A DNA stretch of 64,000 nt from a virus (lineage: Duplodnaviria; Caudoviricetes): positions 98,181 to 162,180 of the IMG/VR virus record IMGVR_UViG_3300000439_000004; one strand, 5' to 3'. Each line of letters begins with the position of its first letter. The first letter of the stretch is position 1. The notes beneath the pieces were generated by a model. The model was not told where the DNA came from. It searched no databases and saw only the letters and a program-made list of their open reading frames with translations. The position numbers and the translations under genes are program-made. Below, one piece after another: positions 47,216 to 58,518 of this stretch.

Positions 47216-49660
47216 ATGGAAGAAAGGAATTTTGGGTATTTGGGTGCTACGTTTCAACAATCATTAATCAAAGCGATTATTGAGGATAAAAAGTATGGTG
47301 AGAACATCATTGATGTAATAGAATCACGTTTCTTTGATAATAATGCTTTTAAGTTTATTATGGAGAACTTGAAAGAATTATATAGATCATATAATAAAAT
47401 TCCTGATTATAATACGTTAGCTCAAAAGATAATGGCAGAAAACGGTAATAAAGAATCTGCTAGAATTCACATTGACACACTAGAAATAATTAAAAATAGT
47501 GTTGAAACAGAATATGTTAAAGATACCGCACTTAATTTTTGTAAACAACAAAATTTAAAGAGAGAACTTAAAAACGTACAAAGTATTATTGAAAATGGTG
47601 ATTTTGAAAATTATGCAAAAATTGAACAAATCATTCAAAAGGCGTTACAAGTTGGTATTATTAATGATGACGCAACAGATGTATTTCACGATATTGAAGG
47701 TGCTTTAGAGAAAGATTTTAGACATCCAATACCAACAGGTATTGTAGGTATTGATAATCTTTTAAAAGGTGGTTTAGGATTAGGTGAATTGGGTGTTGTA
47801 TTAGCACCAACTGGTACTGGTAAAGCATTACCTATAAGTGAACCAATATTGACTCCAAATGGTTGGATGAAAATTGGGGATATTAAATGTGGTGATAAAA
47901 TTATAGGTTCTGATGGTAATGAACAATTTACAATAGGGGTTTTTCCACAAGGTAATAGACCAATATATAGAGTTGAATTTACTGATAATACTTTTGTTAA
48001 CTGTGATCAAGAACATTTATGGTCAGTTAATACTCTTAATATGAGAACAACAAAAATAAGAAAAAATGGTAAATCTTTATATAAACCAAATAACAATTAT
48101 AAAGTTATGAAAACATCTGAAATGATGTTGGATATAAAAAAACGAGGTAGATATAATTATCGTTTACCTATTGTTGAACCAATTAACTTTAATGAAAAAG
48201 AAGTATTTATTGATCCATATTTATTAGGTTTACTCTTGGGTGATGGTTGTTTAGGTTGTGATACAATACAAATTTCAACTAAAGATGATGAAATATTCGA
48301 TAATATTAAACATTTGAATATTCATACATCATTTAATGAATATGAAAGAGAAACATTAACTGGTATAAAAACAATAAAGAAAATTTTATTAAATTACACA
48401 ATTAAAAAAGATTTAGAAAAATATAATTTATTGGGGACAGAATCTAATAATAAATTTATCCCAAATGATTATTTATATAATTCATTTGAAGTTAGATTAT
48501 CAATTTTACAAGGTTTAATGGACACTGATGGTTATGTGGATAAAAAAGGTTGTACACAAATAATAACAATTTCAAAAGATTTATCGTTAAATATTAGAGA
48601 ATTAGTTTTATCATTAGGTGGAACATGTAATATAACTTTAAAACAACCAACTTTTAAATATAAAGGTTTTAAAAAGTTAGATCAAATGGCATATGTTGTA
48701 ACAATATCTTTTTCAAATAATATTGTACCATTTAGATTAATAAGAAAAATAGAAAGATTTAGAAAAAGAAAAAAATATATTTCACAAAAATTTATTAAAT
48801 CAATTAATTTTTCACATAACGAAGAAGCGGTATGTATAAAAGTATCAAATACAGATGAATTATTTGTTACTAGGGATTATGTATTAACACATAACACAAC
48901 ATTATTAACTAAATTTGCAAACACTGCTTATAATTTAGGTTATAATGTACTTCAAGTATTTTTTGAAGATAATCGAGGTAATATTAAAAGAAAACACTAT
49001 ACAATTTGGTCAGGTATCGCACCTGATGAACAAAGTGATAACAAAGAAGAAGTTTTGTTTCGTCTTAAGGAAATACAAGATAACACAAAAGGTTCAATTA
49101 AATTATTGAAATTACAATCTGATGGTGTTACTATTTCTGAGATTAAATCTAAAATCAGAAAGATGTATTCAGACGGATTTAAGGTCGATTTATTGTTGAT
49201 TGACTACGTTGACTGTATTTCACCTGAAAGGTCAAATAACGGGGAAGAATGGAAGGGAGAAGGGTCAATTATGAGACAATTGGAGTCAATGACCAGTGAG
49301 TTTGAAATGGCAATATGGACGGCAACACAAGGTAATCGTGATTCAATATCATCTGAAGTGGTTACCGCAGATCAAATGGGTGGTTCTATTAAGAAAGCAC
49401 AAATTGGTCACGTTATTTTATCTATCGGTAAAACTTTGGAACAAAAAGAACATAACTTAGCAACTTTAACATTACTTAAATCTCGTATTGGTAAAGATGG
49501 TGTTGTGTTTCAAAATTGTAAATTTAATAATGAATATTTGGATATCGACACAGAGATGCAAAATACGTTATTAGGTCACGAAGAAGAAAAGACAAAGAAC
49601 AATATTAATAGGGCTAGAGAGGCGTATCAAAGGAGAAACCAAATGGCCAATAATCAATAA
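47216..49660 (+). CDS. dnaB: DnaB-like replicative helicase with an intein
   Basis: APTGTGK|TT, IDYVD, TATQGNR, LKSRIG. Confidence 0.9.
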   Translation: MEERNFGYLGATFQQSLIKAIIEDKKYGENIIDVIESRFFDNNAFKFIMENLKELYRSYNKIPDYNTLAQKIMAENGNKESARIHIDTLEIIKNSVETEYVKDTALNFCKQQNLKRELKNVQSIIENGDFENYAKIEQIIQKALQVGIINDDATDVFHDIEGALEKDFRHPIPTGIVGIDNLLKGGLGLGELGVVLAPTGTGKALPISEPILTPNGWMKIGDIKCGDKIIGSDGNEQFTIGVFPQGNRPIYRVEFTDNTFVNCDQEHLWSVNTLNMRTTKIRKNGKSLYKPNNNYKVMKTSEMMLDIKKRGRYNYRLPIVEPINFNEKEVFIDPYLLGLLLGDGCLGCDTIQISTKDDEIFDNIKHLNIHTSFNEYERETLTGIKTIKKILLNYTIKKDLEKYNLLGTESNNKFIPNDYLYNSFEVRLSILQGLMDTDGYVDKKGCTQIITISKDLSLNIRELVLSLGGTCNITLKQPTFKYKGFKKLDQMAYVVTISFSNNIVPFRLIRKIERFRKRKKYISQKFIKSINFSHNEEAVCIKVSNTDELFVTRDYVLTHNTTLLTKFANTAYNLGYNVLQVFFEDNRGNIKRKHYTIWSGIAPDEQSDNKEEVLFRLKEIQDNTKGSIKLLKLQSDGVTISEIKSKIRKMYSDGFKVDLLLIDYVDCISPERSNNGEEWKGEGSIMRQLESMTSEFEMAIWTATQGNRDSISSEVVTADQMGGSIKKAQIGHVILSIGKTLEQKEHNLATLTLLKSRIGKDGVVFQNCKFNNEYLDIDTEMQNTLLGHEEEKTKNNINRAREAYQRRNQMANNQ
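47825..48895 (+). mobile_element. Cis-intein (357 aa), class 3 signature, Ala1
   Basis: GK|ALPISEP..QEHLW..LGLLLGDG..GLMDTDG..AVCIKV..LTHN|T. Confidence 0.92.
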
Positions 49661-49674
49661 AATAAAAAAATAAA

Positions 49675-50625
49675 ATGAAAGAAAGAATTTTAACGGAAAA
49701 TCCGGACAGGTTTGTATTGTTTCCCATTGAACATAATGATTTATGGGAATTTTATAAGAGTCACCAATCTGCATTTTGGACAGCGGAAGAAATTGATTTG
49801 AGTGGTGATATCAAAGATTGGGGTAAATTAACAGATAATGAAAAGTTTTTTATTAAAAATGTTTTATCATTCTTTGCAGCATCTGATGGAATTGTAAATG
49901 AAAACTTGGCAGAAAACTTCTATAAAGAAGTACAATATACAGAAGCTAAGTTTTTCTATGGTTTTCAAATTGCTATGGAAAATATACATTCCTTGATGTA
50001 TTCATTGTTGATTGATACTTATATCACCAATGAAAAAGAGAAAGACGAATGTTTTCATGCAATTGATAGATTACCCGCAGTTCAGAAGAAAGCAAAGTGG
50101 GCATTAGATTGGATTGAAAGTGCATCTTTTCAAGAAAGATTGGTAGCGTTTGCTGCAGTTGAGGGTATATTCTTCTCTGGATCTTTTTGTTCTATCTTTT
50201 GGTTAAAATCAAGAGGTATTATGCAAGGTTTATGTAATGCAAATACTTTGATTTTTAAGGATGAAAATTTACATTGTGATTTTGCAATTAATATTTTAAA
50301 TAATCACCTTGAAAATAAACCAAGTGAAGAAAGAATTAGACAGATTTTATTATCTGCTTTAGAGATAGAAAAAGAGTTCATTACAGAATCATTACCAGTA
50401 TCTTTGATAGGTATGAATGATAATTTAATGAAACAATATTTGGAGTTTGTTGTTGATGGTTTATTGGTAAAAATGGGTTGTAAGAAAGAATTTAACGTTG
50501 AACAACCATTTAAATTTATGGAACAAATTGCAATTGAAACAAAGGGTAATTTCTTTGAATCAAGAACGGTAGAATACCAAAAAGCAAAATTGGGAGAAAG
50601 TTTAACATTTACTGATGATTTTTAA
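49675..50625 (+). CDS. nrdB: Ribonucleotide reductase class Ia beta subunit
   Basis: [40 protein letters not shown]. Confidence 0.95.
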
Positions 50626-50637
50626 TATTTATAATTT

Positions 50638-52221
50638 ATGTCACTAAGAATTAAGAAAAGAAGTGGGAGTGATGAGTCATTCAACCCACAAAAAATTTAC
50701 AACAGAATAAAGAAAGCATCTAAAGGATTAAATGTTAATTCAGATGAGATTTTCATAAAAGTTATCACATCTGTACCAACCGAAGGTCAGATAAAAACAA
50801 GAGAAATAGATAAATTGGTATATGAAATTGCAGCATCATACACTGGTAGCCATCACGATTATTCGAGATTGGCCGCCATAATTGCAATATCTTCTTATCA
50901 TAAAAAAACAAACCCAAGTTTTTCTGAGACAATGAAAACTCTATATGATGAGGGTGTTATAAATATTGAGTTAATAAACACAATTGAAAAGTATGGTGCG
51001 GATAAAATAGATTATATTATTAATCATGAAAATGATTATAATTTTGATTATTTTGCATGGAGATCATTGGCTGAAATGTATTTGTTAAAGAACTCAAAGG
51101 GTAAATTATCTGAAAGACCACAACATATGTATATGAGAGTGGCTTTGTGGGTAACAAAATCTTTTGAAGATGCTGTTGAATATTACAAATCATTATCAAC
51201 ACAATTAATATCTCCTGCAACACCAATTATGATCAATGCTGGTACTAAAGTTCCTCAACTTGCATCTTGTGTGTTGAAATATAATGAAGCAGATTCAAGA
51301 GAAGGTCTTTTGGGTACAATGAATGATATCTCAACATATTCATCTGATGCTGCTGGTATTGGTTTATGTATGTCAAATATCAGAAGTAAAGAAAGTAGAA
51401 TTTCATCATCAGGTGGTTATGCTGGTGGTCTTTTAAAATACCTTAAAATTATAAATGAATCATTAAGATTCTTTAACCAACAAGGTAGAAGACCTGGTAG
51501 TGCTGCAATATATCTTGAACCTTGGCATAAAGATATAATGGATCTTTTGGAGATTAAAAAGAACACAGGTGCGGAAGAGTTAAGGGCAAGGGATTTGTTT
51601 ACTGCATTATGGATACCTGACAACTTCATGGAGGCTGTTAAATCTGACTCTGATTGGTATTTATTCTGTCCAAATGACATCATTAAAAATGGTATTAAAC
51701 CATTACAAGATTCATATGGTGATGAATATTTGGAGAATTATAATAAGGCGGTAGAATTAGGTATTGGTAGGAAAGTTAAGGCACAAGATATATGGAATAA
51801 AATAATTGAGTCTCAGGTTGAAACTGGTGTACCTTATTTATGTTCTAAAGATAATGCTAATAAGAAAACAAATCATCAAAACTATGGTGTTATCAAACAA
51901 TCAAATCTCTGTTGTTTAACTGGAGATGTCCAATTAAACATCCAAAGAGAAAATGGTGATGTTGAAAATTTAACAATTAAAAACGTAATTGATTTAATTG
52001 AAACTTCGGAAAAATTAAAAGTAAAAAGTGAAAACGGTAAATTTGTTGATATATTAACCGGAAAATTAACTAAAAAAAATTCTGAAATTTTAGAAATAAT
52101 TGATGAAGAAACTGGAAAAAGTATAAAATGTACCCCAGATCATTTGATTTTCACTAAGAATCGTGGTTATATTAGAGCGGATGAATTAGTTGAAACGGAT
52201 GTTTTAGATGTGTACAAATAG
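50638..52221 (+). CDS. nrdA: NrdA fragment 1 (ATP cone to radical Cys) + split intein 1 N-half (51913-52218)
   Basis: ERPQ, SPATP, ASC, QGRRPG, QSNLC|CLTGD..CTPDHLIFT..DVLDVYK*. Confidence 0.93.
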   Translation: MSLRIKKRSGSDESFNPQKIYNRIKKASKGLNVNSDEIFIKVITSVPTEGQIKTREIDKLVYEIAASYTGSHHDYSRLAAIIAISSYHKKTNPSFSETMKTLYDEGVINIELINTIEKYGADKIDYIINHENDYNFDYFAWRSLAEMYLLKNSKGKLSERPQHMYMRVALWVTKSFEDAVEYYKSLSTQLISPATPIMINAGTKVPQLASCVLKYNEADSREGLLGTMNDISTYSSDAAGIGLCMSNIRSKESRISSSGGYAGGLLKYLKIINESLRFFNQQGRRPGSAAIYLEPWHKDIMDLLEIKKNTGAEELRARDLFTALWIPDNFMEAVKSDSDWYLFCPNDIIKNGIKPLQDSYGDEYLENYNKAVELGIGRKVKAQDIWNKIIESQVETGVPYLCSKDNANKKTNHQNYGVIKQSNLCCLTGDVQLNIQRENGDVENLTIKNVIDLIETSEKLKVKSENGKFVDILTGKLTKKNSEILEIIDEETGKSIKCTPDHLIFTKNRGYIRADELVETDVLDVYK

Positions 52222-52263
52222 TCGTTTACTCATTATTGATATATTTATATATGAACAATTTTT

Positions 52264-53436
52264 ATGAATTATTATGTGTATGTTTTATTGGATGATAGAT
52301 TTCCAGGTAATTATGATAATCCATATTATTCTGGAATCACTTTCAAACCGTTTTATGTTGGAAAGGGATTACATGAAACTAAAAATAAAATAAAAAGACA
52401 TTTGTTCCATTATGTTAAAAATCCGATATCATGCGATGGGGATGTTAATCCCAATAAATGCAGAACTGTAAAATTATTAAAAGAAAACAATTATGAACCA
52501 AATTATATAATTGTTTACGAAAGTGAAGATGAAAATTTAGTTTTGAATATTGAACGTGAATTAATAAAATTTTACGGTAAAAGTATTGATGGAGGTATTT
52601 TAACAAATATAACTGATGGTGGAACAGGAGGTGATATTTTAAAATTTATTCCCGATAAGAAAGATAAAATAAATAAAATTTTGTCAAAAAATTGGTCAGG
52701 AGAAAAAAATCCAAATTTTAAAAGGCCAATTGAAGAAAATTTTAGCCATTTACGTAAAATAAACAATAATCATTGGAATAAAGGTAAAATAATGAGCGAT
52801 GAGACTAAACGAAAAATAATTAAAACTAGAAAAGAAAAATTACCAATTGTTGAAATGATAGATATTAATACAAAAGAAATTTTAGATAGATTAACAACAA
52901 TCTCAGCAATTGAAAAATATAAATTAACACCGTCTAGACTTTATTCATGTTTAAAAAATGGGGGAACACATAAAAATTACCATTGGAAATTTGAAAATAA
53001 AGATTTAGTTATTTTAAAATCTTTTAGAAATGACTATATTAAACCTAAAATAAAAGAAAAAATTAACAAAAAAGTTTTTTTTAAAAAAAACATAAACGAC
53101 ACTGTTGAAGTTGAGTATAAAAACACCTCCGAAGCGTCCAAAGAACATGGATTTTGTGTTGAGTTTATTCGTAGGAAATGTAAAAAAAACACTAGTTATG
53201 ATAACATTTTTAGATATGAAAATAGCGAATATAAAATTGAAATACCTAAAGGGGTAAAAAAATCTGTTGTTAAAATAGATTCCAATGGTAACAGAACAGT
53301 ATTTCAAAGCGCGACAGAGGCATCTAAAAGTATTGAAAATGGTAATATTTCAGCAATAGTGTCTGTATGTAAAGGTAAAAGAAACACTTATAAAAAATAT
53401 AAATTTGAATATTTAAAAAATGATAAAAATAAATAA
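52264..53436 (+). CDS. GIY-YIG homing endonuclease with NUMOD3/NUMOD1 domains, in nrdA break 1
   Basis: YYVYVL..PFYVGKG..LTNITDGG. Confidence 0.85.
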   Translation: MNYYVYVLLDDRFPGNYDNPYYSGITFKPFYVGKGLHETKNKIKRHLFHYVKNPISCDGDVNPNKCRTVKLLKENNYEPNYIIVYESEDENLVLNIERELIKFYGKSIDGGILTNITDGGTGGDILKFIPDKKDKINKILSKNWSGEKNPNFKRPIEENFSHLRKINNNHWNKGKIMSDETKRKIIKTRKEKLPIVEMIDINTKEILDRLTTISAIEKYKLTPSRLYSCLKNGGTHKNYHWKFENKDLVILKSFRNDYIKPKIKEKINKKVFFKKNINDTVEVEYKNTSEASKEHGFCVEFIRRKCKKNTSYDNIFRYENSEYKIEIPKGVKKSVVKIDSNGNRTVFQSATEASKSIENGNISAIVSVCKGKRNTYKKYKFEYLKNDKNK

Positions 53437-54400
53437 ATTAATTAAAAAAGAAGACGTATATGATATACAAGTACCAGAAACGGAATGTTTTTATGGTAAT
53501 GATATATTGGTACATAATTGTGAGATTTATCAATATACTGATTCTGAAACAACTGCAATCTGTACATTATCTTCTATTGTTTTAAAGAACTTTATTGTTG
53601 ATGGTAAATTTGATTTCCAACTATTGTATAAAGAAGTAAGGAAAGTAGTTAATGCACTTAATAAAGTAATTGATATCAATAGTTATTCTACTCAAAAAGG
53701 TAGAAAGGGTGGATTAGAACAAAGAGCAATTGCAATTGGTACTCAAGGATTAGCAGATGTATTTTATTTGTTAGATTATATTTTCACATCAGAGGAGGCA
53801 AAAAAATTAAATAAACAAATATTTGAAACAATATATTTTGCGGCAATTACTGAAAGTAATGATCTTTGTAAAACTGGTAAATATTTGAATTATGAAGGTT
53901 TTGATGGTTCACCAATGTCAAAAGGTATTTTCCAATTTGATATGTGGGATAATGTTGAACTATCAGGTTTATGGGATTGGAACACATTAAAAGAAGATGT
54001 TAAAACATATGGTGTTTGTAATAGTTTAGTTACGGCACAAATGCCAGTAGCTTGTCAAACATCTGATACAAAGGTAATAACTGAAAAGGGTGTTTTAAGT
54101 TTTAAAGAGATTTGTGAATTAAATGATATAGATGTTGATAACATTGAAAAAAATGAAAATGGTGGTGTTTGGTATAATTTTAAAACTCCAATTTTAATAA
54201 AAACCTTAAATGGATATTCAATATCGGATAAAATTTATTACAACGGTTACTCTGAAATTATTAATATAGAAATGGAAGACGGTACTATTTTTAAATGTAG
54301 TCCGGAACATAAATTTTTAATTAATAGAAATAATGAAAACATATGGGTTAAAGTTAAAGATTTAAATGAAAATGATGACATAATTAATATAAACGAATAA
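53420..54400 (+). CDS. nrdA: Split intein 1 C-half (53420-53518) + NrdA fragment 2 + split intein 2 N-half (54053-54397)
   Basis: VYDIQV..ILVHN|CEIYQ..AICTLSS..RAIAIGTQGLAD..AQMPVA|CQTSDT..CSPEHKF..DLNENDDI*. Confidence 0.93.
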   Translation: MIKINKLIKKEDVYDIQVPETECFYGNDILVHNCEIYQYTDSETTAICTLSSIVLKNFIVDGKFDFQLLYKEVRKVVNALNKVIDINSYSTQKGRKGGLEQRAIAIGTQGLADVFYLLDYIFTSEEAKKLNKQIFETIYFAAITESNDLCKTGKYLNYEGFDGSPMSKGIFQFDMWDNVELSGLWDWNTLKEDVKTYGVCNSLVTAQMPVACQTSDTKVITEKGVLSFKEICELNDIDVDNIEKNENGGVWYNFKTPILIKTLNGYSISDKIYYNGYSEIINIEMEDGTIFKCSPEHKFLINRNNENIWVKVKDLNENDDIININE

Positions 54401-54459
54401 TATCTGTCATTTACGTGTTAAAAAAAAATAAAATAACATATTTATAAAAAACAATTAAT

Positions 54460-55944
54460 ATGAATATGTTATTTTTCAACAATACCAAAATTAAAACTAA
54501 AAACAGTATTATTTTTTTTATGTTAAATTTAGATGAAAACGTTATAAAAATTAATGGAGATGAAAGTTTTTTATTTAAAATATTAGAAATTAGCGATGAA
54601 AAAATTAAACCATTTGAAATAATTGATATTTTTATTAAAAACAAAAAACAAATTAGAAGTGTTATAAAATACATTGAAAATAATAAAACAAATATCGATA
54701 TTGATAGAATGGTTAAATTTTTAAATTATAAAATGATGAATTTAAATGATTCTAACAGTAAAACATTTTTATGTTTAATGTATGGAGATGAAATTGGCAA
54801 TGAAAAATTTAAAAATAATCAAAAACAATTTTCAAAATACTATGATAAAAATTATTATATTAATCTAGGATTTACTGAAGAAGAAGCTTTGGAAAAAATA
54901 TTTTCTTATAAAACTAAAAAATCAACTACTAAAATTAATTTTATAAAAAAATACGGCGAAAAAGAAGGTATTCAGAAATATGACGATTATGTTAATAAAA
55001 GTAAAAACACTATAGAAAATTTTAAAATAAGATATGGAAGTGAATGGTTAGAAAAATGGGAAAATTACATTAAAAAAGATTCATCATCCCTTTCTTGGGC
55101 GTTGAAAAAATCAAATGGAGATGTTGAAAAATCAAAACAAATATTTGATGAAAAAAATAAAAAAACAACAATTAATTTAAATTTTTTCAAAAAAAAATAT
55201 GGTGACAATATATACATTGAAAAATATATCGAAAATAATCTTAAAAAAGACAATTCAAGTTTAAATTATTTTTTAAAAAAATATGACGATTTAGAAAAAA
55301 GTTTAAAAGAGTATAAAATTAAAAATCAAAAAAAAGATTCTAATAGTTTGGATTTTTTTAAAAAAAAGTATGACGAAAATGGTGAATTATTGTATAAAGA
55401 AAAATGTAAATTATCGGATAATAAATCTTTAGGTTATTTTATTAAAAAAGAAAACGATTACGAAAAAGGTTTTAAAAAATATCAAGAGACTAAAGAAAAA
55501 TTATTTGTTAAAATCTTAAAGGCAAGTAAAAGTAGTTTAAGACATTTTAAACCATTATATGATTTTTTAATTGAAAATAATTATGACGATGTTTATTTAG
55601 GTGTGGAAAATAATAAAGAATATTTTATTAAAGATAAAAAAAACATTTATTTCTATGATTTTACCTTAAAAAACAAAAAAATAATTATAGAATATAATGG
55701 TAGTTATTGGCATCCTAATTGGGAGAAACATGAGATTAACGAATCAATAAAAAAATTCAAAAATAAAATTGTTGACCCAATTAAAGTAATAAATAAAGAT
55801 AAAGAAAAAATTAATATTGCAATAAATAATGGTTTTGAAGTTTTAATATTATGGGAAGAAGATGGGTTTTATTTTAATGAAGAAAAATTAAAAAATTTTT
55901 TAAATAAAAAAGGTATAAATTATGAAAATAAAAAAAATTACTAA
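54460..55944 (+). CDS. Vsr/PD-(D/E)xK-like endonuclease with helical KKYG repeats, in nrdA break 2
   Basis: FYDF..IIIEYNGSYWH..GFEVLILWE. Confidence 0.8.
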   Translation: MNMLFFNNTKIKTKNSIIFFMLNLDENVIKINGDESFLFKILEISDEKIKPFEIIDIFIKNKKQIRSVIKYIENNKTNIDIDRMVKFLNYKMMNLNDSNSKTFLCLMYGDEIGNEKFKNNQKQFSKYYDKNYYINLGFTEEEALEKIFSYKTKKSTTKINFIKKYGEKEGIQKYDDYVNKSKNTIENFKIRYGSEWLEKWENYIKKDSSSLSWALKKSNGDVEKSKQIFDEKNKKTTINLNFFKKKYGDNIYIEKYIENNLKKDNSSLNYFLKKYDDLEKSLKEYKIKNQKKDSNSLDFFKKKYDENGELLYKEKCKLSDNKSLGYFIKKENDYEKGFKKYQETKEKLFVKILKASKSSLRHFKPLYDFLIENNYDDVYLGVENNKEYFIKDKKNIYFYDFTLKNKKIIIEYNGSYWHPNWEKHEINESIKKFKNKIVDPIKVINKDKEKINIAINNGFEVLILWEEDGFYFNEEKLKNFLNKKGINYENKKNY

Positions 55945-56629
55945 ATCAATTCTAAAAGAACCCGTATGGGATATTGAAGTTGAAAATGATCACCATTACA
56001 TAACTGAAAATGGTTGTGTTAGTCACAATAGTTCTGCTAAAATCACAGGTTCATTTGAGATGACAGAACCTGCACACTCTGCATTATTTAACAGAAGAGT
56101 AGTTGGTGGTGAGATATTGATTGTTAACAAATATTTGATTAATGATTTTGAAAAACTTGGTATTTGGTCTGAAGAATTAAAGAATGAGATTATTATGAAT
56201 GATGGTTCTATTCAAAATATTAATTTTAATAATTATTTGGATAAAGAAGAAAAGAATTATACTAAAAAAATTCAAAGAATTGAACATTTGATTTTAAAAT
56301 ATAAAACAATTTGGGAAATTTCACAGAAAGAATTGATTAATATGTCAGCAGATAGAGGACCATTTATTGATCAGTCTCAGTCAATGAACATATATATGTC
56401 AAACCCAACATTATCAAAAATTTCATCTTCACATTTTTATTCATGGGAGAGGGGTCTTAAAACATTATGTTATTATGTTAGAACAAAGGCGATATCAACG
56501 GGAGCAAAACACTTGGCGTTAGATACAACAAAAATTCAACAAACTAAGACCGATAAACCTAAAGTAGATTATGTTGAAACAACTAAACCAACAGATTCTA
56601 TATTTGAATGTGTAGGTTGTAGTTCATAA
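55922..56629 (+). CDS. nrdA: Split intein 2 C-half (55922-56029) + NrdA fragment 3
   Basis: VWDIEV..VSHN|SSAKITG..IDQSQSMN..GLKTLCYYVR..ECVGCSS. Confidence 0.93.
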   Translation: MKIKKITKSILKEPVWDIEVENDHHYITENGCVSHNSSAKITGSFEMTEPAHSALFNRRVVGGEILIVNKYLINDFEKLGIWSEELKNEIIMNDGSIQNINFNNYLDKEEKNYTKKIQRIEHLILKYKTIWEISQKELINMSADRGPFIDQSQSMNIYMSNPTLSKISSSHFYSWERGLKTLCYYVRTKAISTGAKHLALDTTKIQQTKTDKPKVDYVETTKPTDSIFECVGCSS

Positions 56630-56665
56630 AAAAAATCCCAATATTAAAAGTATTGGGATTTTTTA
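56630..56665 (+). terminator. Intrinsic terminator
   Basis: aaaaatcccaata-ttaaaag-tattgggattttt. Confidence 0.8.
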
Positions 56666-56767
56666 TTTATTAGATTCAGAAAATATAGTCAAATTTCCCA
56701 CAGAACCAATTTTTTCACAATTTAATTTATATTTATGTAAATAAGTAATAAGTTATTTATATAAAAT

Positions 56768-58012
56768 ATGAAAACATACTCAATTAGATTATTTCCAACT
56801 CAAGAACAAATATTACAACTTAACCAGTTGTCGAATATTAGAATGGATGTATGGAATACTCTTATTGATATTCAACAAAAATATTACGAAATAAATAAAA
56901 AAATATATTCAAAATTCGAATTAATTAATCTTCTTCCAAAATTAAAAAATGTAACAAAACCAGAATGGAAATTACTTAACGCAAAGGCAATACAAACAAT
57001 TGCAACCGAAGTCTCCCAATCATATCAATCATTCTTTACCCTAATTAAAAAAGATAATACAGCAAAACCGCCTAAACAAAAAGAATTAGGAAGATATCAT
57101 ACCTTAGTTTTTAACCAATCAGGTTGGGTATTTAAAGATAATAAAATACAAATAAATAAAATATTATTTAACTATAAATCTAACCTAACTAATGTATCAG
57201 AATTAAATATTAAACAAATTTGTGTTAAATTTAATAATAATAATAATAAATGGTTATGTGATATTGTGATTAACGACACAATATCATATAATGATAATGT
57301 TATAATTAATACTAAGGTATTGGCGTTTGATTTGGGATTAAAAAATTTAGGAACTGGTGTGGATAATAAAGGTAATGTATTTATCTTAAAGAATAAAGCT
57401 AAAAAGATTAATCAGTATTTTGGTAAACAAATTAATGAAATTAAATCTAAATTAAGTAAAAAAGAAAAAGGAAGTAAAAATTACAATAAACTAAATAAGG
57501 TTAAGAAAAAATTATATTCTAAAAAAAATACTCAAATAAAAGAAACTCTACATATTCAGAGTAAACAATTAGTGAATATGAACTACAAAACAATTGTAGT
57601 AGGTGAATTAACAATTAAATCTTTAATGTCAATAGAAGGTATTAATAAGAATAAAAAAAGTATTAGAAAATCATTTAATGAATCTAATATTAATATGTTC
57701 TTAGAATTTCTTAAATATAAATTACAAAATAAACAATGTGATTTAATTAAGATAAATGAAAGAAATACAACACAACTTAATTCTTTAACAGGAAAAATAT
57801 TTAAGAATAAGGTAGAATTAAAAGATAGAATTGTTAAATTAAGTGATAAAGTCGAAATAGATAGAGATTTAAATTCGGCTATTAATATTTTGAAAAGATA
57901 TTATGACAATCACCTTGCTTCTATGACAGAGCCATTAGATTATACTAATGTAATTATGAACTTTAATGTTTGTAATAACCATTCCTCAATTGGTAATTTT
58001 ATTGTTTTTTAG
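56768..58012 (+). mobile_element. tnpB: Solo IS200/IS605-family TnpB RNA-guided nuclease
   Basis: YSIRLFPTQEQ; RuvC residues AFDLG, VGEL, DRDLNSAINI; no tnpA adjacent. Confidence 0.88.
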
Positions 58013-58065
58013 ACAATGATAGGATGTCATTTATTACCATTTTGATATTTACTATATTTATGAAT

Positions 58066-58518
58066 ATGGCAGTAACATATGGTGTAGATTTTCCATTTAG
58101 AGATAGTTTTAAAGGACATTTTGTACAAATGACAGAAAGTCCTGAAAGAGAAGTTCGTGCTGATTTAATTCATTTAATATTAACAAGAAAAGGTAGTAGA
58201 TATTATTTACCCGATTTTGGTACTAGATTATATGAATTTATATTTGAACCAAATGACCAAACTACTTGGGATTTAATTGAAACAGAAATTAGGGAAGCGG
58301 TAAAAAATTATATCCCAAATTTAGATATTAATTCAATAACAGTAACATCTGCAGAAGATGATCCAAATAATCAAGTAACATCAAATATACTTGAAGATGA
58401 AAGATTATTTAGAGTATCAGATGCGTCCACAGAACCATATACCGCAGTAGTAAAAATAGATTATACTGTAAATAATGGAGCATTTTCATCTTCCGATTTT
58501 ATAATTATCAATATATAA
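58066..58518 (+). CDS. Baseplate wedge protein (gp25-like)
   Basis: LTRKGSRYYLPDFGTRLYEFIFEP. Confidence 0.88.
   Translation: MAVTYGVDFPFRDSFKGHFVQMTESPEREVRADLIHLILTRKGSRYYLPDFGTRLYEFIFEPNDQTTWDLIETEIREAVKNYIPNLDINSITVTSAEDDPNNQVTSNILEDERLFRVSDASTEPYTAVVKIDYTVNNGAFSSSDFIIINI

Follow-up and report, generated by a model that had tools for sequence, protein, structure and literature searches.

An nrdA gene broken twice in a metagenomic phage, with two split inteins predicted to rejoin it

Organization of the nrdA locus

The stretch of DNA analyzed here (hereinafter designated the window) comprises the final 64 kb of the IMG/VR virus record IMGVR_UViG_3300000439_000004 (162 kb), which is ~52% complete as judged by CheckV. 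The G+C content of the window is ~27%, and its source is a large AT-rich uncultured myophage, with Bacteroidota as the probable host group. In the window, the class Ia ribonucleotide reductase (RNR) gene nrdA is divided over three plus-strand open reading frames (ORFs) with the layout extein1-IntN1 / IntC1-extein2-IntN2 / IntC2-extein3, in which IntN and IntC are the N- and C-terminal halves of split inteins, and an endonuclease gene occupies each of the two gaps. The five ORFs span 50638-56629:

50638-52221, + strand: ORF1, a 425-aa extein followed by the 102-aa IntN1
52264-53436, + strand: endonuclease gene 1 (390 aa), in gap 1
53420-54400, + strand: ORF3, the 33-aa IntC1, a 178-aa extein and the 115-aa IntN2
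54460-55944, + strand: endonuclease gene 2 (494 aa), in gap 2
55922-56629, + strand: ORF5, the 36-aa IntC2 followed by a 199-aa extein

Stop codons end IntN1 and IntN2, and IntC1 and IntC2 each have their own ATG, placing the halves of both inteins on separate polypeptides, as they also are in independent assemblies. A preliminary description of this DNA had proposed the same three-piece anatomy, the same intein-half lengths and an endonuclease gene in each gap, and all five ORFs are as it described them. We assign the gap-1 gene to a predicted GIY-YIG/NUMOD type and the gap-2 gene to a probable Vsr-like type. This locus is the only copy of nrdA in the 162-kb record.

The NrdA sequence is distributed over the three pieces as follows:

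50638..51912, + strand: NrdA extein 1 (425 aa), comprising the ATP-cone, the all-alpha domain and the barrel through the thiyl-radical Cys; it ends in SNLC
53519..54052, + strand: NrdA extein 2 (178 aa), starting with CEI (catalytic Glu) and ending in MPVA; Ribonuc_red_lgC positions 213-390
56030..56629, + strand: NrdA extein 3 (199 aa and stop), with the Tyr-Tyr radical-transfer pair and the C-terminal CxxC tail; Ribonuc_red_lgC positions 391-523

Pfam recognizes the ATP-cone, Ribonuc_red_lgN (all-alpha) and profile positions 1-213 of Ribonuc_red_lgC in piece 1, and the three pieces together tile the last profile without gap or overlap. Extein 2 matches eukaryotic R1 structures (E = 5e-44), and in extein 3 neither the Tyr-Tyr pair nor CxxC varies among the aligned relatives. 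The class Ia NrdA features are present (ATP-cone, all-alpha domain, barrel, thiyl Cys-x-Glu loop, Tyr-Tyr, CxxC and an adjacent NrdB), and the active site is shared among the pieces: piece 1 supplies the thiyl Cys, piece 2 the catalytic Glu, and piece 3 Tyr-Tyr and CxxC.

Most close IMG/VR relatives (75-83% extein identity) have one continuous nrdA, and in intein-free relatives both site 1 (SNLC-N/A-EI) and site 2 (MPVASSAKITG) are uninterrupted. In the window, site 1 reads SNLC / intein 1 / CEI, an insertion one residue after the thiyl-radical Cys with Cys as the +1 residue, and site 2 reads MPVA / intein 2 / SSAK. That removal of the intein halves restores both conserved motifs, as had been claimed, is borne out by the intein-free relatives, which read through both sites; the predicted spliced NrdA is 802 aa long. 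A DNA-level search of the phage collection returned short extein matches only. Such read-through at both junctions is far beyond chance, and independent assemblies show the same architecture.

The source being a metagenome assembly, the breaks might be assembly or sequencing errors, or they might be RNA-level introns, like the group I intron found elsewhere in nrdA of the relative KP13-7 (see below), with the gene itself continuous. However, identical breaks, intein halves and start codons recur in many independent assemblies and in one isolate genome, and the gaps are filled by complete endonuclease genes. An Rfam scan of 49500-58100 matched no family, and therefore no group I or II intron. 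We regard a truly continuous gene as extremely improbable.

Split inteins and free-standing endonuclease genes

The four intein halves are:

51913..52221, + strand: IntN1 (102 aa and stop), with Cys1 and a block B T-x-x-H motif (T-P-D-H); NrdJ-1 relative
53420..53518, + strand: IntC1 (33 aa), ending in HN before +1 Cys; NCBIfam intein_Cterm, 27.6 bits against a cut-off of 15.6
54053..54400, + strand: IntN2 (115 aa and stop), with Cys1 and a block B S-x-x-H motif (S-P-E-H); NCBIfam intein_Nterm, 31.9 bits against a cut-off of 24.5
55922..56029, + strand: IntC2 (36 aa), ending in HN before +1 Ser; NCBIfam intein_Cterm, 30.7 bits against a cut-off of 15.6

Pfam Intein_splicing matches all three nrdA pieces. 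In alignments of 9, 17 and 18 relatives at 38-84% identity, the residues expected to catalyze splicing do not vary: Cys1 and the block B Thr and His of IntN1 (9 relatives), the block F Asp and terminal His-Asn of IntC1 (17 sequences), and Trp16, Asp17, His35 and Asn36 of IntC2 (18 sequences). Cys1 and the block B His of IntN2 are likewise invariant, the first position of its block B being Thr or Ser among relatives. Both inteins keep the full class-1 splicing residue set, including the +1 Cys or Ser, which is invariant as well, and look competent. Pairwise ratios of nonsynonymous to synonymous substitution rates (dN/dS), rough values because synonymous sites are near saturation, are ~0.05-0.45 for the intein halves and 0.03-0.14 for extein 3, and both inteins are under purifying selection.

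The conserved catalytic residues bear on whether the halves splice at all. They could instead have lost this activity and serve only to clasp the three NrdA fragments to one another by non-covalent affinity. In phage Aeh1, a free-standing homing endonuclease gene splits nrdA (nrdA-a / mobE / nrdA-b), which is still functional, and non-covalent assembly of its fragments is established (PMC3045599). The Aeh1 gene, however, has no intein halves, whereas canonical split inteins flank both breaks in the window. A clasp would need neither Cys1, the block B His, the terminal Asn nor the +1 nucleophile, yet all catalytic residues of both inteins are kept and are invariant across relatives. Moreover, intein-bearing alleles have Cys at the +1 position of site 1 where intein-free alleles have Asn or Ala, the signature of a requirement for splicing. 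Clasping without ligation thus appears unlikely.

The two inteins differ in lineage. IntN1 matches the NrdJ-1 split intein structure (Protein Data Bank (PDB) 8UBS) with E = 4.5e-14 and a near-identical block B region; by this match, intein 1 is a relative of NrdJ-1 at the NrdJ-1 insertion site, and its HINT fold can be predicted from the NrdJ-1 structure. A PDB sequence search with IntN2 matched nothing, and intein 2 is, on sequence comparison, of a different lineage and a mostly split family. When 1.84 billion 50%-identity representatives were searched with IntN2, 520 relatives were found; the family is called mostly split because the IntN2-type domain forms the protein end in 125 of the best 150 of them. 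We modelled the natural contiguous intein 2 of a relative (locus L009), with a predicted local distance difference test (pLDDT) score of 85 and a predicted template-modelling (TM) score of 0.82, from an alignment that was anchored on extein residues and in which the first ~10 IntC2 residues are misplaced. Its best PDB fold matches are all inteins (PhoCDC21-1, E = 1.4e-8; Npu DnaE, TM 0.81; gp41-1, TM 0.85), suggesting that the intein 2 family adopts the HINT fold, as modelled on this contiguous relative rather than on the window's halves.

Each IntN is separated from the following endonuclease gene by a short spacer:

52222..52263, + strand: spacer 1, non-coding, 42 nt, with a TATTTATA box 22 nt 5' of the endonuclease 1 ATG
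54401..54459, + strand: spacer 2, 59 nt, with a TATTTATA box 21 nt 5' of the endonuclease 2 ATG

At their 3' ends, endonuclease gene 1 overlaps ORF3 by 17 nt and endonuclease gene 2 overlaps ORF5 by 23 nt. Endonuclease 1 matches Pfam NUMOD3 above the cut-off and LEM-3_GIY-YIG and I-HmuI_NUMOD-like below theirs (GIY-YIG E = 2e-4); its nearest Atlas clusters are all GIY-YIG/NUMOD3 (score 0.96), and a 59% identical homologue lies in gap 1 of relative locus L011. It is predicted to be a free-standing GIY-YIG/NUMOD homing endonuclease.

Endonuclease 2 matches PHROG 22677 (E = 2.6e-17) and, far below the cut-off, NCBIfam Vsr (E = 5.7e-5); its Atlas neighbours carry DUF559. D400, E411, W417-H418 and D468 are invariant in four homologues, and homologues lie in gap 2 of L071 and L073. 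In a profile search of the PDB, 3R3P appeared at a non-significant E of 0.6, and the top three PDB fold matches of a low-confidence model (pLDDT 58.6) are the Vsr structures 1VSR and 1CW0 and 3R3P (I-Bth0305I). PDB searches with either endonuclease as a single sequence matched nothing. These weak but agreeing lines indicate that endonuclease 2 is probably a Vsr-like homing endonuclease of the I-Bth0305I type defined by Dassa et al.

Recurrence and allelic states among relatives

Among the 90%-identity protein clusters that match ORF3, we classified the best 120. Middle pieces of the form IntC1-extein2-IntN2 make up 26 of them, and in a further 39 only site 1 is fractured; site 2 is occupied by a contiguous intein in one cluster and is the only fractured site in one or two, and the others are intein-free. 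IntC2-extein3 pieces form 15 clusters. About 19 of the 50%-identity representatives also look like middle pieces: each has an IntC1-type sequence among its first 50 residues and finishes with an IntN2-type one. Their length is 290-355 aa in most cases and ~690-735 aa in two, and NrdA extein 2 is detectable in 11, the remainder being judged by motif only.

Individual relative loci (L-numbers) fill in the series. Both fractures occur without an endonuclease gene in L067-L070 (contigs of up to 295 kb), with one in gap 2 only in L071 and in gap 1 only in L074; both gaps are filled in L072 and L073, where the gap-1 gene differs from the window's. Site 1 is split and site 2 holds a contiguous intein in L009, L010 and L011 have an intein at site 1 only, and L012 and L013 have intein-free alleles. 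Together the relatives span every intermediate state, from intein-free to both fractures with both endonucleases. The search for related phages with cis-intein or intein-free alleles, suggested in the preliminary description, therefore turned up both kinds, in L009 and in most close relatives, respectively.

On a tree of extein 2 the intein states are interleaved, some identical exteins differ in state, and at least six changes in the double-split state are required by branches with good support. This scatter is consistent with inteins having been gained and lost repeatedly through homing. The layout recurs, has a long history and keeps changing, and it is widespread in phage metagenomes.

At both sites, related inteins are found one residue apart. 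Site 1 is SNL/C in L057 (5124-6096) and L073 (4549-6099) as against SNLC/C in the window (51913-53518), and site 2 is TAS/S in L068 (6640-7123) as against VA/SS in the window (54053-56029). In L073, with its shifted site-1 register, the gap-1 endonuclease is unrelated to that of the window. The contiguous intein 2 of L009 (6940-7030) retains the Met with which IntC2 begins in split alleles, and its joint is ~26 nt shorter than the endonuclease-less split allele of L074 (2284-2400), so that contiguous and split forms of intein 2 differ by a very small indel.

Two cultured phages carry related arrangements. Klebsiella phage KP13-7 (OP617745, 357 kb, Alcyoneusvirus) carries homologues of both pairs, IntN1/IntC1 and IntN2/IntC2, at the two nrdA sites used in the window, with a GIY-YIG gene in gap 1 and, in gap 2, another endonuclease gene whose product is a different protein from the window's; its nrdA pieces are annotated as hypothetical proteins or as nrdA_1 and nrdA_2. 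Further upstream, nrdA of KP13-7 is also interrupted by a group I intron that is accompanied by an HNH gene (L077:2217-2429; RF00028, 43.3 bits against a gathering score of 50, E = 1.6e-9). With this intron and two split inteins, the gene would need RNA splicing as well as two protein trans-splicing events.

Campylobacter phage CPt10 has the same site-1 fracture together with a contiguous site-2 intein, and its nrdA is annotated in GenBank as a pseudogene. That label raises the question of whether the window nrdA, too, is a pseudogene in decay that selfish elements have taken over, with the host RNR used instead, and the genome is indeed rich in mobile elements. Against such decay, the three ORFs are intact, each with its own ATG; extein dN/dS is low (0.03-0.14); the thiyl Cys, catalytic Glu, Tyr-Tyr pair and CxxC tail are all retained; and the layout is kept over deep divergence and after loss of the endonuclease genes. 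A pseudogene is therefore very unlikely.

Predicted trans-splicing, known systems and genomic setting

Taken together, the sequences point to a real doubly fractured nrdA that very probably needs two protein trans-splicing reactions. Three polypeptides would be translated (extein1-IntN1, IntC1-extein2-IntN2 and IntC2-extein3); IntN1 would pair with IntC1 and IntN2 with IntC2, each pair rebuilding a HINT domain. Splicing would then follow the class-1 pathway, with an acyl shift at the intein Cys1, transfer to the +1 Cys at site 1 or the +1 Ser at site 2, and cyclization of the terminal Asn, to give a single 802-aa NrdA with the junctions SNLC-CEI and MPVA-SSAK. The GIY-YIG and Vsr-like genes would be free-standing homing endonucleases, located where an intein's own endonuclease domain would be, and each IntN-endonuclease-IntC cassette would most likely spread through its endonuclease into intein-less nrdA alleles of co-infecting relatives. 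The anatomy, family memberships, conservation, recurrence and allelic series are observed directly; we infer that splicing takes place and in which order, that the ORFs are co-transcribed, that the endonucleases are active in homing and that the two pairs are orthogonal enough. Assembly of one NrdA by two trans-splicing reactions, as first put forward in the preliminary description, would fit the invariant catalytic residues, the purifying selection and the lack of an intron signal.

Such a gene would work only if the two pairs stay separate. IntN1 and IntN2 are 32% identical and IntC1 and IntC2 47%, only IntN1 matches NrdJ-1, and each intein lineage keeps to its own site from the window phage through to KP13-7. 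Orthogonality is a reasonable expectation given the co-residence of both inteins in an essential gene. We considered whether charge complementarity could determine which halves pair, and rejected this idea: in each pair the IntN tail is acidic and the IntC head basic, and with the same polarity charge steering cannot separate the pairs.

Some points weigh against this account. Non-cross-reaction is not guaranteed by sequence alone, because of the IntC identity and the shared charge polarity, and the dN/dS values are rough, as stated above. The probable Vsr-like assignment of endonuclease 2 derives from sub-threshold matches and a low-confidence model, and a second RNR may lie outside the roughly half-complete record.

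Fractured genes of this kind were described by Dassa, London, Stoddard, Schueler-Furman and Pietrokovski in 2009 at 26 loci with a single fracture each (NrdA-1 to -7, NrdJ-1/2, gp41 and IMPDH), with spacers of 27-51 nt and endonuclease/IntC overlaps of 6-69 bp in 15 loci (PMC2677866). In their model, a free-standing endonuclease gene invades a mini-intein and yields a split intein, and the endonuclease may later be lost (PMC2677866). The window locus shares with that set the split-intein break, the single strand, the short spacer, the free-standing endonuclease gene (of a predicted GIY-YIG or probable Vsr-like type) overlapping the IntC ORF, the phage setting and, as target, the RNR catalytic subunit at its thiyl-Cys loop. 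It presents this layout twice, spacer 2 (59 nt) being slightly above the published range. Unlike the genes in that set, the window nrdA has two fractures, giving an internal IntC-extein-IntN polypeptide, and site 2 (MPVA/SS) is absent from the split-intein sites of Dassa et al. Site 1, after the thiyl Cys, is their NrdJ position, whereas their NrdA site lies one residue upstream. Intein 1 shares its insertion point and IntN/IntC split geometry with NrdJ-1 (8UBS), an ultrafast tool intein, but the NrdJ-1 host is a class II NrdJ, whereas that of intein 1 is a class I NrdA with a +1 Cys.

The closest parallel to the middle piece is engineered. Pinto et al. (2020) built tandem three-piece trans-splicing with a middle fragment that has an IntC head and an IntN tail and with two non-cross-reacting pairs (PMC7090010). 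Engineered tandem systems are man-made from inteins of unrelated genes, whereas the window arrangement is natural, lies in one essential gene and has a presumed orthogonality. A literature search that did not cover subscription journals found no natural gene with two split inteins, two in one protein being met only in engineered systems, and none is mentioned in a phage RNR gene survey, in jumbo-phage genome papers or in a comparative review of jumbo phages. The suggestion that a doubly fractured gene had gone undescribed thus agrees with the literature found, but the locus is not singular: it is widespread in phage metagenomes, is present in KP13-7 and persists without endonuclease genes. The kind of gene is already known; what seems not to have been described before is the tandem form, how abundant it is and the full series of alleles.

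A broader reading, which we favour with less assurance, is that the locus represents natural, obligate, tandem three-piece trans-splicing on an essential enzyme. Two intein lineages, one close to the ultrafast NrdJ-1, would have been co-resident long enough for mutual orthogonality, and the same phage lineage would keep every step of fractured-gene formation (empty site, contiguous mini-intein, split without and split with endonuclease) along with related inteins one residue apart at both sites.

Ligation of several protein fragments requires split-intein pairs that do not cross-react, and orthogonal sets have so far been assembled by screening inteins of unrelated genes. A gene that works only if two pairs stay separate would be a source of pre-selected orthogonal pairs in dozens of diverged natural variants, one pair being related to NrdJ-1. 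The allelic series in one phage lineage would also make the Dassa model directly testable on natural sequences, and annotation could benefit, such pieces now being labelled hypothetical or pseudogene even in isolate genomes.

Further features border the locus:

49675..50625, + strand: nrdB (RNR small subunit), directly upstream of nrdA piece 1; Pfam Ribonuc_red_sm, E = 1.7e-105
56630..56664, + strand: terminator-like hairpin and T run, directly 3' of nrdA piece 3

This hairpin, after ORF5, is the only one in 49.5-58.1 kb. By position, nrdB and nrdA probably form one operon, the five ORFs being co-transcribed with nrdB. A sigma-70 promoter scan gave scores no better than shuffles. TATTTATA boxes occur at 50626, 52242, 54439 and 56754 (+), 12-22 nt 5' of the ATGs of nrdA piece 1, both endonuclease genes and tnpB; the two IntC-led ORFs have no upstream TATTTATA. 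Because TATTTATA is not enriched across the window (25 found, 28 expected), we do not claim it as a promoter, and its placement may be chance in AT-rich spacers.

A TnpB / IS200-IS605 OrfB-type gene (OrfB_IS605, Cas12f1-like TNB, helix-turn-helix; 56768-58012, +) lies between nrdA piece 3 and a gp25-like baseplate gene and is missing from relatives of the same synteny. Inteins also occur elsewhere in the record. In the DnaB-like replicative helicase gene (47216-49660, +), the P-loop is interrupted by a contiguous intein that includes a LAGLIDADG endonuclease domain (GK / intein / T). Position 1 of this intein is Ala (Glu in L009) and thus lacks a nucleophile; with Trp in block B, Cys in block F and a T-H-N end, it looks like a class 3 (WCT) intein. 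At least four further intein-splicing-domain matches, some with internal stops, lie in the record at C1 58322-58783 (-), 72368-74800 (+), 77758-78873 (+) and 97934-98191 (-), and the genome is unusually rich in inteins. The helicase gene of L009 (567-3405) has the same contiguous intein and a second, fractured site, at which an ORF ending in IntN is followed by an 86-aa Vsr-like ORF and then by an ORF that starts with an IntC ending HN/S; this second site is a gp41-type fractured gene of Dassa et al., whereas the window helicase has no second break.

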